DNA of 64,000 nucleotides from a bacterium (GCA_032250835.1 JAVVEA010000010.1:32001-96000), one strand, 5' to 3'; shown: positions 48,353 through 55,358, counted from the stretch's first letter. A program made the numbers and translations. The notes: generated by a model from the letters alone, not told the origin.

Positions 48353-48739
48353 ATGAAAAGCCGGGAACTTTCCAGACAACTGATTTCCCCTTTCCCCGAA
48401 CGCCACGGCGGCCCAAAGGAAAAGAAAAGCTTTGAGGAAAAGCGCATCGAAGACGAGCGCGACACCCGCGAGGCCGTCGCCCGCATGATCCGCGAACAGA
48501 TCAAAAAAGAAGAAAACATTTCCATGGCCGTGCGCGAAGTGATCGCAGAGATCGAAGAGCGCAACCTGATGTGGCGCAACCTACGCTTTGACCGTCTCAA
48601 GAAAGACGGCAACGATTATGTAGAGATTGTGGACCGTTTGACCGGAGATGTCTTGAAGGTGCTGCCCCAGCCGGACTACAACCAGCTAGCCAACCACTTC
48701 AAGAAACACCCCGGCTTGACCCTAGACATCAACGCCTGA
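48353..48739 (+). CDS. FlaG-like flagellar protein
   Basis: VEIVDRLTGDVLKVLP...PGLTLDINA matches the FlaG C-terminal pattern; AGGAGG RBS. Confidence 0.65.
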   Translation: MKSRELSRQLISPFPERHGGPKEKKSFEEKRIEDERDTREAVARMIREQIKKEENISMAVREVIAEIEERNLMWRNLRFDRLKKDGNDYVEIVDRLTGDVLKVLPQPDYNQLANHFKKHPGLTLDINA

Positions 48740-49038
48740 TGAGTGACTACCGCACCGAAAAGGCGCTGCGGCGCTTGGTTCTGGTCGAGCAGAACCCCGA
48801 ACCCCTCAAAGTGACCATCAGCCCCTTAGCCAAGCAAAAGGCCAACGGGAAAGAGGCGATCAGCGTTATCCGCGAATCACCCGAAGAGGAAAAAGCCCGC
48901 CTGGGCGAAGAACGAACCCGCCTCCGCGCCGAGCGCCTAGAGCAAGACGCCAACCGCCTGCTCTACAAAAAAGGCATCACCAGCCGCCCCCTATCCAAAC
49001 CCAACCAAAAGGTGATGAAGCTGGTGGATGAGGACTAG
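48739..49038 (+). CDS. Hypothetical charged protein
   Basis: TGATG coupling to the previous gene; host-like codon usage. Confidence 0.65.
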   Translation: MSDYRTEKALRRLVLVEQNPEPLKVTISPLAKQKANGKEAISVIRESPEEEKARLGEERTRLRAERLEQDANRLLYKKGITSRPLSKPNQKVMKLVDED

Positions 49039-49039
49039 G

Positions 49040-49609
49040 TCACACGTTTTCTTCACACCAAGCTAGATAGCGGCTCCTCTGAACTGTTTGGGCTGTTCTG
49101 GGTGCCGTTTCCCAGCCCCAACAAGCAATTTCATAATGAGGCCCCGCGTCAATAAAGCTGGCATCCAGTGAGCTGAGCAGCTCCTGATAATCTTCGTTGA
49201 TGCTTTCTTTCCTATAGATCACCACCGCAAAGACAGCCCGGAGATCCCATTGGGCCTGCTTGATGTGGGTGAAGCCCCATAGATCGACAGAAGCTTGATT
49301 AACGGCTTTAACCTGATCGGCATTTTGTTTGAGTTCAATACCAACCCATGACTTTTTAGTGGAATTGTCTAGACGAAAGGCAAGATCAATGGAGTTGATT
49401 TTGCGGATAGTTTTTTTCTGGTGCCGGTCATACCGTTTCTCTAAGATTACTTTGCCTGAGTGGCTTAAAAAACTGGCCAATTCGACTTGAAACCATATTT
49501 CCCACTGGGTAATGCCGCCATCATAGATTGATTTTAGACGTTTTTTAACTGCTTTATCGCTAGCAAACTTTTTAAGAAGTTTGGTCAGTTGATTTTGTTG
49601 GGTTCCCAT
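49040..49609 (-). CDS. Putative PD-(D/E)XK-fold nuclease-like protein
   Basis: WEIWFQVEL, IDLAF and GIELK form an E...D...ExK arrangement; AT-rich. Confidence 0.55.
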   Translation of the reverse strand: MGTQQNQLTKLLKKFASDKAVKKRLKSIYDGGITQWEIWFQVELASFLSHSGKVILEKRYDRHQKKTIRKINSIDLAFRLDNSTKKSWVGIELKQNADQVKAVNQASVDLWGFTHIKQAQWDLRAVFAVVIYRKESINEDYQELLSSLDASFIDAGPHYEIACWGWETAPRTAQTVQRSRYLAWCEENV

Positions 49610-49792
49610 GCTCGCTCTTGGTTCGGGTGAAGTTCCCCCATACCAGCAAAGAAATCAGGCTTTACCCAGGACAAAAATAGGACATTCGGGGGCAAGGTAA
49701 CGGGAGGCAACACACAGTTCACTCTTAGCGACCCGCTAGGGGGTTGGTGGTGGCTTCATCGCCCAAGAAAATGATTTGAAAAATAGCTAGTA

Positions 49793-49907
49793 AGCCACCG
49801 CCGCCGCCATCGGAACAGTCGTGCACCGAAGCCACTAAACCTTGGCTTAAGGTTTGGTGCAGGCTGCGATAGCGGGCCATGGTGCTGGCGGCGTCCACTT
49901 TGGGCAC
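49793..49907 (-). pseudogene. purL: Diverged duplicate fragment of purL
   Basis: 49803-49907 aligns to 52610-52714 with 13 mismatches in 105 nt and encodes VPKVDAASTMARYRSLHQTLSQGLVASVHDCSDGG. A further 10 nt match follows a 2-bp deletion. Confidence 0.93.
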
Positions 49908-49918
49908 TATGCCGTAAA

Positions 49919-49941
49919 TCAGGGGACAGTAAACTAATTTT
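49919..49941 (+). repeat. Island boundary motif copy R1
   Basis: TCAGGGGACAGTAAACTAATTTT; 18/23 identical to R2 in inverted orientation. Confidence 0.65.
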
Positions 49942-50025
49942 CTCGGGATATCGGTGAAACCGGGGGATAAATTGGGTCTGAAATCTGGATTGCCGTTGAT
50001 CTAAGAGGAGTGCTCTATCCGGTCG

Positions 50026-50082
50026 GTCGACGAGGACTCCAAGACCGTCCATGTTCTTCGCATGTGGACCCACTATGAGTAG
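50026..50082 (+). pseudogene. C-terminal remnant of a Txe/YoeB-family toxin
   Basis: Reads VDEDSKTVHVLRMWTHYE-stop, the typical YoeB/Txe C-terminus. An in-frame TAA lies at 50002 and there is no N-terminal part. Confidence 0.75.
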
Positions 50083-50401
50083 CCGCATCCCCGTTTCAGG
50101 TCATAAACGGATTAGTCCAAACCTACTTGCTAAGATCAAGGGGCAGTAGTTTGTTTCAAGTCGGGCGTACAAAGAAGTTGGGGATTGTAAATTTCGTCAA
50201 GGTGTTGGCTAGCTTCCATGAAGGTTTTGACAGCCGAGGACCCGAACGGGAGCCCATATTTTGAGCAAGAACTATTCGGTGCCAGCCAGCGTGCTTTTGG
50301 GCGCGAAGCTCTTGGCCGAAAAGGGCAACTGGGCTGGGTGGCATAAGTTTTGACCTTTCTGTTATTGAGGGGTAGAATTTAGGGCGAGTAAACCCAGTTA
50401 T

Positions 50402-50641
50402 ATGAGAACCTCCATGAACCAGACCGTGAATATCCCGCTGACCTTTGCCGACGATACGTCAGAGGAAGAGAAAGAGGCGATAATCGGGGAGGTAAAGCGT
50501 TTTGTGGCCCGGATACGGTTGTCCCAGGGATTGCGCAAAACCCCTGATTCAGCGATTTCATTTGAAAAACAAATGGAAATCATCAACGTCGAAAAAAAGG
50601 CGGCTAGACTTGAATCGACGGGCCATGCGCCTGGTCGTTGA
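50402..50641 (+). CDS. Small protein, probable antitoxin partner of the PIN toxin
   Basis: 79-aa ORF overlapping the start of the PIN gene, the typical type II TA layout. Confidence 0.55.
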   Translation: MRTSMNQTVNIPLTFADDTSEEEKEAIIGEVKRFVARIRLSQGLRKTPDSAISFEKQMEIINVEKKAARLESTGHAPGR

Positions 50642-51037
50642 TACCAATATTCTGGTCAGTGCGTTGGTGTTTGGTGCCAGTGCCAAAGCCTGCCTAGACC
50701 TCATCGCCCACAACCCCAATATTACCCTACTGGTAAGTGCTCCGGTGGCGCGCGAATACCTCGCCGTACTCCAGAAAAATTTGTACAGTTTCAGCCATTG
50801 GCTGTGTTAAACCAACGTCTAGATGACTACCTCGAAGGTTGTGTCTTAGTAGAGCCCCAGGTCAAGATCAAGAAATGCCGCGATCCCCATGATGACATGT
50901 TTTTGGAGCTGGCGGTCGCAGGGAATGCCCAGGTTATTTTGTCGGGAGATCAAGACCTACTAGCACTCCATTTTTTCGAGGGAATAGAAATCTTAAGCTT
51001 GTTAGCTTTTGAGGCAAAATACCAAAGACTTGGCTGA
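50625..51037 (+). pseudogene. PIN-domain (VapC/PIN_3) toxin, frameshifted at an A5 run (50775-50779)
   Basis: MRLVVDTNILVSAL..EY in one frame and CRDPHDDMFLELAVAGNAQVILSGDQDLL in another. Adding one A joins them. Confidence 0.88.
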
Positions 51038-51104
51038 TGTCCAATAGGTTACGGTCAGGAGCTTATCCACTGCCCTTTGGCCGCTCTAATTTTCCCAGGT
51101 AAAA

Positions 51105-51127
51105 AAAATAGGTATTCCGTCCCCTGA
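51105..51127 (-). repeat. Island boundary motif copy R2
   Basis: Minus strand TCAGGGGACGGAATACCTATTTT. Confidence 0.65.
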
Positions 51128-51139
51128 CTTCTTGTTCTT

Positions 51140-51158
51140 AAATTGTTTGGGGTCCCCT
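51140..51158 (-). repeat. Island boundary motif copy R3
   Basis: Minus strand AGGGGACCCCAAACAATTT; 16/19 identical to R4. Confidence 0.65.
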
Positions 51159-51169
51159 TCCACTACAGG

Positions 51170-51610
51170 CTAGTGGGATTTTTTGTTGATCGTTAGTTGG
51201 GGCTTTTCGGCGAATTGGATTTCTAGAGCTTCGGCAATCAATTGGATGTTGTTGAAGCTGGCCGATTGATAGCCTTCGGCCTCCCAACGCTGAACTTGCT
51301 GTTCTGCTTTGTGGATTTTTTGGCCCAGTTGCTTTTGGGTCAAATGAGCCGCAATACGCGCTTTGATCAAAGCAGCCGGAAGGTCGGCCAGCGAGTTGAT
51401 CTCGATGACTGCTTCTTGCTCGTTGGCCAGCGCCTCGTATTCTCGGACTTCGGCTTCCATTTGGCTTAACTGATCGGCGATATCATCGAACCGAGCCTGC
51501 CAAAGTATCGGGTCCACCTGGTCTGGTCTTTCTTCAGGTTGTTCCAACGCTTTTTTGAAGGCGACAATCTGCGCTTTGGTTGCGCCTAGTTGTTTTTGGT
51601 TCTTGATCAT
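51170..51610 (-). CDS. XRE-family HTH protein (putative antitoxin)
   Basis: MIKNQKQL N-terminal helix; LIKARIAAHLTQKQLGQKI..EQQVQRWEAEGYQSAS HTH. Confidence 0.88.
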   Translation of the reverse strand: MIKNQKQLGATKAQIVAFKKALEQPEERPDQVDPILWQARFDDIADQLSQMEAEVREYEALANEQEAVIEINSLADLPAALIKARIAAHLTQKQLGQKIHKAEQQVQRWEAEGYQSASFNNIQLIAEALEIQFAEKPQLTINKKSH

Positions 51611-52038
51611 CTTTGCTCCTTTAGGCGGATCACCAGAATTCCTTTGGGGTTCCCGTCTCTATCTAATTGGAAAAACTCCTCGAAAGGCTTGCCTGAGCCT
51701 CCTTCAATTTGATTCGCAAAGATGTCACCCCTATATATTTCTTTACGTTCGCTTCGTTTGGAGCCGAGAAAAAGCCGGTCATCTATTTTGGCTAAATCCA
51801 CGCCGTAGATATCCCAGCAAAGGTCATAGTCTCCCGGTGTCTCTTTGCTGGTCACGAAGCTACCGTCAAGCCAAACTTGGAGGCAATCTCCCTTTTTCAA
51901 TTCCTCAAGCAACCTAGCGAGCCCTTCTAAAAGCCAAATCCGGCGAGCATTGCCGCCAAATCGATCTTTGACTTCTTCGAAAGTCGCCAAATGTTTGCCT
52001 GGAGGAAGATTACCGGAGGCTTCAAAATTTGGTATCAT
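51607..52038 (-). CDS. DUF6932-like nucleotidyltransferase-fold protein (putative toxin)
   Basis: GNLPPGKH, WLDGSFVTSKETPGDYD (GS...DxD) and DRDGNPKGI. ATGA overlap with the HTH gene. Confidence 0.82.
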   Translation of the reverse strand: MIPNFEASGNLPPGKHLATFEEVKDRFGGNARRIWLLEGLARLLEELKKGDCLQVWLDGSFVTSKETPGDYDLCWDIYGVDLAKIDDRLFLGSKRSERKEIYRGDIFANQIEGGSGKPFEEFFQLDRDGNPKGILVIRLKEQR

Positions 52039-52108
52039 GCATTTATGTTAGAAGAATTTTACTGAGCCCATAAGCTTTTGGTTTATTCTAGCAAGAGATG
52101 AGTGAGTT

Positions 52109-52126
52109 CACAACATATTAGTTGTG
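52109..52126. promoter_or_regulatory. Palindromic operator candidate upstream of the NTase-HTH operon
   Basis: CACAAC-ATATTA-GTTGTG, ~70 nt upstream of the start at 52038. Confidence 0.5.
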
Positions 52127-52174
52127 TTGAAGCTGCGGCTTAAAATGGGGGTACAGAGGCTCGAAAGGAACTCA

Positions 52175-52193
52175 GGGGGACCACAATCAATTT
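52175..52193 (+). repeat. Island boundary motif copy R4
   Basis: GGGGGACCACAATCAATTT; inverted partner of R3. Confidence 0.65.
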
Positions 52194-52294
52194 TTTGATA
52201 AGCGGGCCTATTTAACGTCAAGCGCTAGGCTACAAAAGCCAGAGGGGTGTGTGGAGGAGGCAGCGGGGAACCAGGAGGCCCCCGCTGCTAACGC

Positions 52295-55282
52295 CTAGAA
52301 ACGCTCTAGGTAGCTTTGCCAGCTGTCCTTTAAGGCGTAGATCGAAGCTTGCAAAAGCTTCTCGTTGCCGTTTTTGAAGGCTAGGTTGGGCTCCTGGGTC
52401 ACTTCGCCCAAGAACGTACAGGCCTGACCGGCAAAGAGGGCCTCAAAGGCTGCGGTTTGCTCGGGCGCAACGGAGACCACCAAACGGCTGGCGGACTCGC
52501 TAAAGAGCAGCTCGTCGGGGCGTAGGTTTGAGGCCGCCAAGAGCGGACCCAAATCCAAAGCCAGACCCAACCGCCCGCCAATGGCCTTTTCGGCCAGAGC
52601 CACCGCCAAGCCGCCATCAGAACAATCATGCACCGAAGCCACCAGACCTTGGGTCAGGGCTTGGTGCAGGCTGCGGTAGCGGGCCATGGCGCTGGCGGCG
52701 TCTACCTTGGGCACCAAGCCGCCGGTAAGCCCCAGCTGGGCCATATACTCGCTGCCGCCCAACTCGCGCTGGGTGGTGCCGAGGAGATAAACCCGGTCGC
52801 CAGCCTGCTTGAGGTCGTGGGTAGCGCAGTCGCTTAAGCTGTCCACTACGCCCAAGGCGCTAAAGAGCAGCGTGGGCAAGATGCTGATCTTTTTGCCATC
52901 TAAGTTGGCGTCGTTTTTCATGCTGTCTTTACCGGAGATGCAGGGCACCCCGTAGGCAAGGCAGTAATCATAAATCGCCTGACAGGCCCGCACCAATTGG
53001 GCGGCCTTAAATTCGCCGTCCGGCGTCTTGGCCGATTGGACCGGATCGGGCCAACAGAAGTTGTCCAAACCGGCAATCCGGTCGGGGTTCGCGCCCACGG
53101 CCACCAAGTTACGGATCGACTCGTCGATGGCGTTAGCCGCCATATGGTAGGTGTCGATGGCTGAATATTTGGGGCAGATGCCATTGGAAAGGGCCACCGC
53201 TTGGTCCAAGCCCAATACGGGGCGCAACACGCCGCCGTCGTTGGGGCCGTCGTTGGCGGCACCGCCCATGGGCTTGATGGCCGAAGCGCCGCCGACCTCG
53301 TGGTCGTATTGGCGGACCACCTTTTCTTTCGAGCAGACGTTGGGCCGCGCCAAAACTTGGGCCAGCATTTGGCCTAGGTCCTCTGGCTCGGCAAAGTCCG
53401 GGTGCGACTCGTTGGGCGCTTGCCACTGGGCCTTGATCTTCATGGGCGGAAGGCCGTCGTGCAGGAATTCCATGCTCAGGCTGGCCACCAATTGGCCTTC
53501 ATAGAAACATTCCAAGTAACCCGAATCGGTGAATTCGCCCAGGTCGCTAGACTCCACCAACATTTCGTTGGAAAGCTCAAGGAAACGGGCCACCTTCTCG
53601 GGCGGTACCGCCAAGGTCATGCGCTCTTGGGCCTCAGAGATCAGGATTTCCCAGGGCTGCAGCCCGGCATACTTGAGCGGAGCCCGGTCCAAATGCAACC
53701 GGCAACCGCCTGAGTCCTCAGACATCTCACCAATCGAACTAGAGAGCCCACCGGCCCCGTTGTCGGTGATGCAGCTGAAGAGGTTTTCGGCTTTGGCGCG
53801 CCAGAGGAAATCAAACATCCGCTTCTGGGTGATCGGGTCGCCGATCTGCACGGCCGAAACGGGGCTGGTTTCTTCTAAGGCCAAGCTAGAGAAGGTGGCC
53901 CCGTGGATTCCGTCTTTGCCGATCCGTCCGCCAACCATCAAAATATGGTCGCCAGGGCGGGCTTTTTTCTCTTCACTGGGGCGGCCTTCGTGCTGGGCGG
54001 GCATGACCGAAAGGGTCCCACAGAAAACCAAGGGCTTGCCTACGAAGGTATCGTCGAAGACCAAAGCGCCGTTAACCGTCGGGATGCCCGACTGGTTGCC
54101 GCCATGCTCAACGCCCAGCCTGACACCCTGATAGATGCGGCTGGGGTGCATCAGCTTTTTGGGTAGCGGTTGGTCATAGTCCAAGGGCCCGAAGCAGAAT
54201 ACATCGGTGTTGGCGATCAACTGCGCGCCCATGCCGGTGCCGAAGCTGTCGCGGTTCACCCCCACAATCCCGGTCAGCGCACCGCCGTAGGGATCTAAGG
54301 CCGAAGGGCTGTTGTGGGTTTCTACCTTAAAAGCCAAGGACCAATCGTCGGTGAACTTGACCACTCCGGCGTTGTCTTTAAAGACCGACAGGAGCCAATC
54401 TTTCTCGCCCAAGCGGCGGCGGATTTCTTTGGTGCTCGCTTGGATGAAGCTCTTGTAGAGCGACTTGATTTCTTGGGGCTGGCCGCTCTCGTCGCGGTAG
54501 TCGATCCAAGCATTAAAGATCTTGTGTTTGCAGTGCTCCGACCAAGTCTGGGCGATGCATTCTAATTCCACGTCCGTCGGGGTCGCGCCGATGCCGCGCT
54601 GTTCGCGTTCCGCCTGGACTTTGGGGTCTTGGTAATAGCGGGCGATCACCTCGGCTTCTTCAGCCGAAAGGGCCAGCAAGCGTTCCTCAGAAAGCTTAAG
54701 CACCGCTTCGCTGCTAGAACAATCCAGGCGTTCGGTGCTGACCTGGGCCATCACTTCGGCTTCGGGGAAGTAAGTCAGCTCGCCTTTGCGGGCCTCCCAT
54801 TGGGCTTTGGAGATGACAATTTTCTTCTCGATCAGGCCGTTGAGCAATAGCTGATCTGCGGCAGCGTTCACTTGTTCTGCCGTAAAGTCGCCTTGCAGCA
54901 AGAAGGCCTTGGCGCTGGCCACGTCTTCACCGGGGCCAAAGGGCGGCAAGAGGAGGTTGAGGTTCTCTTTGGCCACATGCGCGGCGTTGTCGGTCACGCC
55001 GGGCTTGAAGCTGATCTCTACCCACCAGTCGAAGGGGGCGTGATCGCCCCAGAGCCCGTCGGGCGTTAGCTGATGGACCACCGGGTCCAAAAAGAGCTTT
55101 TGGTTTAAGTCGTTGAGATGATCTCGGTCCTTGATCTGACCGTTTTTGATCAAATAGACCTCAAGGTGACGCAGGCTCTTGATTTGCCCGAAACCGTGGG
55201 CGGCAAATTCTTTGGCCAGTTTGTTGCCGATGGGGTCTTCCATCTGGGGCTTAAGCCCCACCTCTAGGCGGTAGAGGGTCAT
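52295..55282 (-). CDS. purL: Phosphoribosylformylglycinamidine synthase PurL with PurS-like N-terminus and no glutaminase domain
   Basis: QTWSEHCKHKIF, KVETHNSPSALDPYGGALTG, DNGAGG, SEAQERM, ISGKDS and HDCSDGG. Start is ATG 55282 or TTG 55309. Confidence 0.96.
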   Translation of the reverse strand: MTLYRLEVGLKPQMEDPIGNKLAKEFAAHGFGQIKSLRHLEVYLIKNGQIKDRDHLNDLNQKLFLDPVVHQLTPDGLWGDHAPFDWWVEISFKPGVTDNAAHVAKENLNLLLPPFGPGEDVASAKAFLLQGDFTAEQVNAAADQLLLNGLIEKKIVISKAQWEARKGELTYFPEAEVMAQVSTERLDCSSSEAVLKLSEERLLALSAEEAEVIARYYQDPKVQAEREQRGIGATPTDVELECIAQTWSEHCKHKIFNAWIDYRDESGQPQEIKSLYKSFIQASTKEIRRRLGEKDWLLSVFKDNAGVVKFTDDWSLAFKVETHNSPSALDPYGGALTGIVGVNRDSFGTGMGAQLIANTDVFCFGPLDYDQPLPKKLMHPSRIYQGVRLGVEHGGNQSGIPTVNGALVFDDTFVGKPLVFCGTLSVMPAQHEGRPSEEKKARPGDHILMVGGRIGKDGIHGATFSSLALEETSPVSAVQIGDPITQKRMFDFLWRAKAENLFSCITDNGAGGLSSSIGEMSEDSGGCRLHLDRAPLKYAGLQPWEILISEAQERMTLAVPPEKVARFLELSNEMLVESSDLGEFTDSGYLECFYEGQLVASLSMEFLHDGLPPMKIKAQWQAPNESHPDFAEPEDLGQMLAQVLARPNVCSKEKVVRQYDHEVGGASAIKPMGGAANDGPNDGGVLRPVLGLDQAVALSNGICPKYSAIDTYHMAANAIDESIRNLVAVGANPDRIAGLDNFCWPDPVQSAKTPDGEFKAAQLVRACQAIYDYCLAYGVPCISGKDSMKNDANLDGKKISILPTLLFSALGVVDSLSDCATHDLKQAGDRVYLLGTTQRELGGSEYMAQLGLTGGLVPKVDAASAMARYRSLHQALTQGLVASVHDCSDGGLAVALAEKAIGGRLGLALDLGPLLAASNLRPDELLFSESASRLVVSVAPEQTAAFEALFAGQACTFLGEVTQEPNLAFKNGNEKLLQASIYALKDSWQSYLERF

Positions 55283-55306
55283 GGTCGCAATTGGGGAGGG
55301 GAGGGA

Positions 55307-55358
55307 CAAAATGGGGGGAGCGTAAGCTCCCCCCAGCGCTTAGGGGAAAGCTTACGCT
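55307..55358 (-). terminator. Overlapping hairpins between acnB and purL
   Basis: 9-bp stem GGGGGGAGC-TTAC-GCTCCCCCC followed by ATTTTG on the minus strand. A competing 10-bp stem AGCGTAAGCT/AGCTTACGCT shares the same bases. Confidence 0.65.

Follow-up and report, generated by a model that had tools for sequence, protein, structure and literature searches.

The closest described relatives of the system considered here are the TIRtrons, in which a Y1/HUH transposase gene is flanked by non-hairpin terminal inverted repeats (TIRs; Di Nocera, De Gregorio and Rocco, 2013, PMC3733652); their enzymes (TIRYTs) have been equated with TnpA-Y1 subclass 2.1 (Quentin, 2018, PMC6006769) and with group 1 of the REP (repetitive extragenic palindrome)-associated tyrosine transposases, or RAYTs (Bertels, 2017, PMC5581495). 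For the TnpA-REP enzyme of Escherichia coli, the 5'-phosphotyrosine is resolved by an attacking 3'-OH (PMC3333891, PMC8266576), and the authors of the REPtron work have suggested that cleavage at a distant site may let such a unit sequester genes or gene fragments (Ton-Hoang, 2012, PMC3333891; Corneloup, 2021, PMC8266576). Prochlorosin genes adjoin TnpA-REP of subclass 2.1, which was proposed to act as an accessory-gene diversifier (bioRxiv 10.1101/2020.03.09.984088). In Vibrio type VI secretion arrays, one end of the incorporated DNA is anchored by homology, the other is joined without homology, and a gene 3' end is left displaced (PMC5361080). Here we analyse 64,000 nucleotides of a bacterial genome (GCA_032250835.1, JAVVEA010000010.1:32001–96000; the window), in which positions 49919 to 52193, beside the 3' end of purL, carry toxin–antitoxin (TA) and candidate defence genes among four copies of a short repeat, R1 to R4.

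The repeat family to which R1 and R2 belong is the TIR of a single-copy TIRYT/RAYT-type HUH-Y1 transposase encoded on another contig. We consider it probable that this RAYT joins one end of the motif to a host 3' end and so completes homology-anchored uptake of DNA, with TA and defence genes accumulating beside the repeats. The process as a whole would then, in our favoured interpretation, be homology-facilitated illegitimate recombination in which an enzyme makes the second joint, unlike an integron. Throughout, G000 is the genome of the window, C-numbers are its contigs and other G-numbers are comparison genomes; the 5' end of the motif, (D)AAATC, is called its head and the 3' end its tail.

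A matrix scan of the genome, as the initial annotation had proposed, was iterated from a seed of R1 to R4 until convergence and yielded a 27-nucleotide family with 58 copies at or above 20 bits, against none in the block-shuffled genome, and 68 copies, grouped into 30 clusters, at the lower listing threshold of 17 bits. The consensus is DAAATCAGG(T/G)GACAGYATACYWATTTT, 27 nucleotides in length, and the core is mostly GGTGACAG, with T at position 3 in 66% (66% of the family being GGTG and 28% GGGG). Only three of the 58 strong copies lie inside long open reading frames (ORFs), which occupy 81% of the genome, and many copies stand at gene 3' ends. They occur as singles, tandems and hairpin doublets of 55–150 nucleotides. 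The 38 neighbouring pairs comprise 12 inward, 12 outward and 14 tandem ones; core spacing in the inward pairs is 47–138 nucleotides in nine, 305 in one, 740 in the pair around the RAYT gene and 1202 in R1–R2, while the outward pairs span 467–2790 nucleotides, most cargo lying there or beside single copies. G+C content was 0.485 on the head side versus 0.523 on the tail side (n = 58, p = 0.003). A hairpin (REP) nature of single copies was rejected, six of six folding no better than shuffled sequences (z from −0.19 to 1.04), whereas doublets do fold (z = −10.8 for one from G015). Targeting of tRNA genes was rejected as well, as a tRNA lies within 2 kb for just 1 of the 68 motifs.

The genome contains a single Y1_Tnp match (G000:C43:2516–3175; 219 amino acids; HIH and YVERNP motifs intact), which scores above the cut-off for PF01797 (42.9 bits) and reaches 63 bits with NF047646, below that model's cut-off of 80. 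An inward motif pair brackets this gene, at C43 2447 (+, about 50 nucleotides before the start) and 3187 (−, overlapping the stop). All 10 homologues of 45–63% identity, from nine other genomes of two families, are flanked on one side or both by a repeat with a GG(G/T)GACA core that is directed towards the gene; most close homologues have TIRs of the GGGGACA type, and the repeat sequence varies together with the protein; none of 18 loci with homologues of at most 40% identity reached 10 bits. In a phylum-wide scan of 88 genomes (G000 included), the exact motif was found in seven, five of which hold a close RAYT, versus five RAYT holders among the other 81, counts that treat kin genomes as if independent. 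The initial annotation's tentative suggestion of a trans-acting Y1/HUH RAYT is thus borne out by this anatomy and co-variation; R3 and R4 could not be linked to this enzyme. Its observation that no recombinase is local also holds: none was seen in the ORFs of 40–62 kb, and the Y1 gene and six tyrosine recombinases lie on other contigs.

The resemblance to TIRtrons extends to a Y1/HUH gene with non-hairpin terminal inverted repeats and to a moderately abundant repeat family found in singles, dimers and groups. As to the TIRtron core, GGGGWSAS, R1 fits it, R2, R3 and R4 are each one base off, and the family is mostly GGTG. Subclass 2.1 proteins are described as marked by a C-terminal helix-turn-helix (HTH), but no HTH family was found at E values up to 1 in the C43 enzyme or in four close homologues (a distant homologue of 327 amino acids carries Bac_DnaA_C). 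The available text of PMC3733652 reports neither polarity nor truncated-gene junctions nor TA or defence cargo, unlike what we describe below. The likeness to the E. coli REPtron (REP/BIME) lies in HUH chemistry, which for the C43 enzyme would hold by analogy; E. coli REPs are GTAG-tagged hairpins, whereas the motif here has no GTAG in its consensus and its singles are unfolded relative to shuffles, and its joints lie at one fixed repeat end, unlike those of the REPtron. In the prochlorosin study no inverted repeats were found, and its authors took back the causal claim in a note; here both repeats and junction footprints are seen. The RAYT had no sequence match in PDB and none in viral contigs, and its 24 plasmid records were all below 40% identity; a doublet had no match in plasmids, and the motif occurred in one viral contig, inside an ORF. 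Beside the RAYT gene, C43:1100–2362 (L001:7–1269) holds a probable integrase-like remnant (by eye), containing an 87-nucleotide tandem repeat plus a doublet, and then a cold-shock-like gene.

The motif is polar, and its heads are junctions with truncated DNA. The survey covered six genomes, G000 as a whole and the others as pieces, with 145 heads and 61 tails. A motif-free homologous counterpart of the flank was found for 23 of the 145 heads, and in 15 of these homology stops 2–14 nucleotides before the core; 13 stand after inspection, two having been dropped because the counterpart holds a decayed motif. In G000, junctions were found at 8 of 53 heads versus 62 of 1500 random positions near motifs (p = 0.002) and, when restricted to low-copy flanks, at 7 of 53 versus 20 of 1500 (p = 2e-5). 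The partners that are cut include purL, a rhodanese–rubrerythrin gene, an orphan gene, a CopG-type antitoxin gene, a nuclease-like gene (two copies) and a signal-peptide gene, as well as the 3' part of tRNA-Gly(CCC), an attC-like site and intergenic repeats. Clean insertions are absent from these 13, as the partner never resumes beyond the repeat within 1.5 kb. Among the tails, 12 of 61 had a counterpart, and for five of these the homology ended no more than 8 nucleotides from the tail; all five belong to a single multi-copy hairpin repeat. The tRNA-Gly(CCC) 3' part lies at C22:347700–348030 (L118), far from any intact tRNA, where together with its downstream flank it is 83% identical to C14:42087–42194 and is joined to a head.

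At the locus itself the initial annotation overlooked a 122-nucleotide copy of part of purL, 86% identical, which ends at 49914, one nucleotide before the head of R1. The features concerned are:

49793..49914, minus strand: displaced purL piece (probable second allele), 86% identical to 52598–52721; begins exactly at the R1 head
49915..49941, plus strand: R1, TIR-family motif, 40 bits; its head (49915) forms the junction with the purL piece
51105..51131, minus strand: R2, TIR-family motif, 31 bits; tail faces the PIN gene
51138..51164, minus strand: R3, variant repeat in tandem with R2, −9.8 bits; its 5' side overlaps a terminator-like hairpin at 51158–51178
52169..52195, plus strand: R4, variant repeat, 5.9 bits, 16/19 identical to R3; head faces the operon, tail faces purL
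52295..55309, minus strand: intact purL, with AIRS and FGAR-AT domains; 52598–52721 is the counterpart of the displaced piece

The pattern by which the four repeats had been recognized, GGGGAC-N3-A-W-W-C-N-W-W-TT, matches exactly four times in the window (49922+, 51124−, 51157−, 52176+); its chance expectation there is 0.34 on average and none of 100 shuffles gave four, a test that understates chance since the pattern was derived from R1–R4 themselves. The reported identities (18/23 for R1/R2, 16/19 for R3/R4) were recomputed and are correct, and all four copies are intergenic. R1 and R2 are both members of the genome-wide family, the score of R1 being inflated by the seeding of the matrix on all four copies. 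R2 and R3 share a strand and lie 33 nucleotides apart, resembling short tandem pairs elsewhere (30–41 nucleotides); R1–R2 is an atypical pair geometry for the genome and R3–R4 a typical one.

The arrangement at purL recurs. Heads of like orientation mark the start of three displaced gene tails, those of purL, of the rhodanese–rubrerythrin gene (C14) and of an orphan gene (C5), and at all three loci the intact gene is followed by cargo, then by a repeat head and then by a copy of that gene's own tail; among four displaced tails, three have a head within 3 nucleotides of the tail start. The purL copies differ by 11 synonymous versus four non-synonymous changes and the C14 copies by 15 versus eight (p = 0.011 and 0.0015, respectively, against a null of decay after local duplication). 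Because these differences are mostly synonymous, beyond what decay after duplication would give, the two copy pairs are probably alleles from two lineages, as homology-facilitated illegitimate recombination would leave behind. One insertion event with a long target duplication would fit C5 and was rejected, being contradicted by the synonymous excess at purL and C14. The C5 locus (C5:40201–46227, L104) has an insert of 5.6 kb whose two ends each carry a doublet; outside it lies a 228-nucleotide gene-end repeat, 97% identical, of which one copy begins at a head and the other stops at a run of partial heads. A low-depth read run from a relative (X1; 11% of words, depth about 3, so that coverage holes carry no weight) yielded a single contig in which 49794 is linked to 52424, the short side being 27 nucleotides; it is too weak for use and may represent the purL duplicate in a longer version.

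As in the Vibrio arrays, what is probably a displaced allele of the anchor gene lies beyond the insert at purL and C14. Here, however, the non-homologous joint meets a transposase end repeat in three of four cases, whereas the described process is rare and non-enzymatic (PMC5361080); this coincidence points to an enzyme-made joint. By analogy with characterized HUH enzymes, the RAYT would most likely cut just 5' of the (D)AAATC head and stay bound to the motif as a 5'-phosphotyrosine, from which any free 3'-OH could release it, joining the head to arbitrary DNA. Non-autonomous copies (singles, tandems and doublets) would thus serve as one-ended ligation adaptors. At purL, the island most likely arrived from a related lineage as a piece consisting of purL 3' end, cargo and R1; homologous recombination in purL would have anchored one end, the R1 head would have been joined to a host strand inside purL, and the host's own purL tail would have been left stranded beside R1. 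Repeated events of this kind could accumulate TA and defence genes beside the repeats.

Of 11 TA loci (Pfam cut-off), 8 have a motif no more than 1 kb away, a zone that covers 2.2% of the genome, in keeping with the enrichment at accessory genes that the initial annotation had predicted. The count merges BrnA with BrnT, both PIN halves, and ParE with YoeB at C40, and leaves out three sub-cut-off BrnT matches (none near a motif) and HTH_3 (eight matches, three within 1 kb). A further 47 ORFs scanned near motifs included several HigB, TumE, CopG-antitoxin, Fic and TIR-domain matches and one match to a CARF model. Two adjacent, similarly built units at C14:5330–10358 (L103), each with the order doublet, cargo, motif, hairpin repeat and gene tail, carry a TIR-domain gene and HigBA, respectively, and look like two alleles of one locus fused at a motif head. 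At C43:52142–53699 (L105), a NiFe-hydrogenase gene and a displaced duplicate of its 3' end flank HicAB. G015, which has 70 motif matches, contains arrays of small genes in one orientation, interspersed with doublets and with attC-like sites (by eye), and in the long arrays at C84:119000–181000 (L050–L052) of that genome 55-nucleotide doublets cut two attC-like copies of one family at nearly the same point; its C56:3700–7500 (L060) has a run of paralogous genes of about 120 amino acids with TIR-bounded mini-elements of 155 nucleotides interspersed. Arrays of secreted-looking genes of 110–125 amino acids in G004 (C78 and C46; L063, L064) are separated by a composite repeat, consisting of a GAAGGGGWCAG unit, then the TIR motif, then a decayed partner. 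A second, GC-rich multi-hairpin repeat family occupies 36 loci in G000 (e.g. C38:150500–150830 and C39:77000–77500), with the TIR motif within 150 nucleotides at 12 of them, mostly on the motif's tail. The same 77 nucleotides stand at C40:1–77, C43:1–77 and C13 ends, probably a multi-copy insertion sequence (IS) that breaks the assembly, and motif clusters at these contig ends may be incomplete.

Several observations weigh against head joining by the RAYT as the source of the islands. The fourth displaced tail (C43, hydrogenase) has no motif at its joint, so that such scars either form motif-free or lose the motif, and its copies, with four of seven differences synonymous, are not significant under the decay null; C5 lacks a synonymous excess (two versus four, not significant). 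Head joints scatter over about 12 nucleotides, and many single motifs turn their tail to host genes, which a head model alone does not explain. G016 and G014 hold the motif with no close RAYT match. Three of the 11 TA loci have no motif nearby, and the TA families counted were picked after ORFs near motifs had been viewed; a passage in PMC13617665 argues against a general link between TA modules and peel-and-paste enzymes. R3 (−9.8 bits) and R4 (5.9 bits) do not fit the genome-wide matrix. Three looser patterns found their form nowhere else in G000, and exact matching against GTDB genomes returned 25 single hits, with no RAYT within 1.5 kb (tblastn, four queries), which does not exceed a rough chance estimate of some tens. 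With GTDB matches at chance level and none in viral contigs, R3/R4 were rejected as a known repeat family; they may be decayed copies, or ends that belong to a different RAYT lineage and came in together with the operon. The comparison genomes are all from other genera, and neither a circle nor an empty-site allele was seen; a metagenome scan for an empty site of the same species returned only three loci, of 61–64% identity.

The main rival holds that selfish REPIN/MITE-like TIR copies hop into tolerant accessory DNA and that the RAYT deletes one-sidedly from the head, the cargo having come earlier through homology-facilitated illegitimate recombination, integrons or other elements, so that the motif only trims islands. 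We regard this as less likely than head joining, although hopping with adjacent deletion would yield the same head junctions and no clean insertions, and would account for the truncated remnants, the motif-free C43 scar and the doublets in the attC-like arrays of G015; displaced gene ends are also known without any transposase (PMC5361080), and in IS elements missing target duplications are often due to adjacent deletions (PMC11708052). It requires, however, that every original clean insertion has been erased (0 of 13 left), and it sits poorly with heads at most 3 nucleotides from the tail start in three of four displaced tails. The second repeat family, which would also be expected in tolerant DNA, is near none of the 11 TA loci when motif-free, a weak point as those copies cover 1.4% of the genome and well under one would be expected by chance.

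It is improbable, in our judgement, that inverted pairs delimit discrete cassettes which a trans-acting enzyme excises and inserts precisely in an integron-like way, as the initial annotation had proposed. The 12 outward pairs often hold whole TA operons or single genes, R3/R4 surround a complete operon with its promoter, and the G015 doublets stand between small co-oriented genes in arrays; the likeness to integrons lies in these G015 arrays, with small accessory genes and TA modules separated by repeats. The junctions, however, are one-ended and fall anywhere in the partner (mid-gene, mid-tRNA or mid-attC-like site), pair geometry is mixed, the inward pairs have mostly short spacers or enclose the RAYT gene, R1–R2 hold remnants, and flank and self comparisons revealed no identical cassette at two loci. 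Integrons differ further in that here no integrase lies near the repeats, no site-to-site joints occur and the G015 repeats cut into attC-like sites; no tyrosine recombinase match was found on contig C84 of G015, and a crude scan gave 15 regex matches to attC-like sites in G000, none at a motif cluster. That the motif serves another protein, as a Xer/dif-like or other tyrosine recombinase site or a transcription-factor operator at stress genes, is very improbable: it is 27 nucleotides long with weak internal symmetry, and pdif modules associate with TA modules, but copies flank RAYT genes and vary from genome to genome in step with them, none of the six tyrosine recombinases is within 5 kb of a copy, many copies stand at gene 3' ends, and the consensus does not look like a dif site.

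The island (49040–52290) has a G+C content of 48% versus 57–59% in its flanks. In a metagenome relative (L072) the island is absent and about 130 nucleotides separate the left-flank gene from a purL 3' end, and G007 carries an unrelated gene at this position, so the island is lineage-specific. Its further features, with the native left flank, are:

48739..49038, plus strand: conserved 99-amino-acid gene after flaG, native left flank; syntenic in G007 and L072–L074
49040..49609, minus strand: 189-amino-acid orphan, outside the repeat-bounded part; probably a PD-(D/E)XK nuclease fold
49667..49687, plus strand: 21-mer small repeat; exact copy at C40:62150, 18-nucleotide match at C38:397
49688..49740, minus strand: possible decayed copy of the purL stop region; weak local alignment (32.5) to 52259–52310, a hint only
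50017..50082, plus strand: YoeB C-terminal remnant, 22 codons; protein 91% identical to the YoeB/ParE gene at C40:30363–30428
50350–50378, plus strand: promoter-like site, 10/12 sigma-70 match
50402–50641, plus strand: 79-amino-acid putative antitoxin, by position; no Pfam or NCBIfam family
50625–50810 and 50798–51037, plus strand: PIN_3 toxin gene in two frames; pseudogene or sequence error
51170..51610, minus strand: HTH_3 (XRE-type) putative antitoxin; PF01381, E = 4.8e-9
51607..52038, minus strand: DUF6932 protein, candidate defence gene; PF22014, E = 7.9e-35
52085..52113, minus strand: promoter-like site of the DUF6932–HTH operon, 9/12 with TG extension

The fold of the 189-amino-acid orphan is suggested by Atlas leads of 0.96–0.97 by features and a TM score of 0.72 to a PD-(D/E)XK cluster; it had no Pfam, NCBIfam or PADLOC match. 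The 21-mer, which the initial annotation took for a partial relative of the R2 flank, is a separate sequence scoring below 8 bits in the matrix, and not the motif; its copies lie near gene starts, and it is possibly a regulator's site or the end of another element. About 250 nucleotides between the YoeB remnant and the TA promoter (50090–50345) have no match elsewhere in the genome. The two PIN_3 frames cover model positions 1–59 and 81–114. The DUF6932 protein, putatively labelled a nucleotidyltransferase (NTase) in the initial annotation, matches PADLOC PDC-M63A (E = 1.8e-15), has one weak partial match in the 87 other phylum genomes, and no homologous DUF6932 module with its flanks was found.

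The repeat and its enzyme are of a known kind; the head polarity, its coincidence with displaced alleles and the TA enrichment did not turn up in a literature search mainly outside subscription journals, which returned no paper on head-polar junctions or on TA capture by TIRYT repeats, and no description of the activity of the TIR-flanked RAYT subclass. RAYTs, present in roughly a quarter of bacterial species (PMC6006769), are retained by their hosts for reasons still under debate, and the arrival of chromosomal TA modules is likewise unsettled (PMC13617665). From this genome come a predicted site of cleavage, the polarity of the motif and a set of natural junctions, which makes both questions testable with one small enzyme and a 27-nucleotide oligonucleotide, and an enzyme that tags any 3' end with a short DNA would, if the reading is true, be a possible tool. 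For the bacterium, our analysis suggests that the enzyme helps to patch TA and defence genes of relatives into the chromosome. More tentatively, and with less confidence than we hold for this locus, TIR-associated RAYTs may be domesticated gene-capture enzymes, the motif head, activated by them, being a universal ligation adaptor that would complete horizontal transfer anchored by homology and by which TA and defence islets would be built at core-gene 3' ends, free of both integrase and target site.

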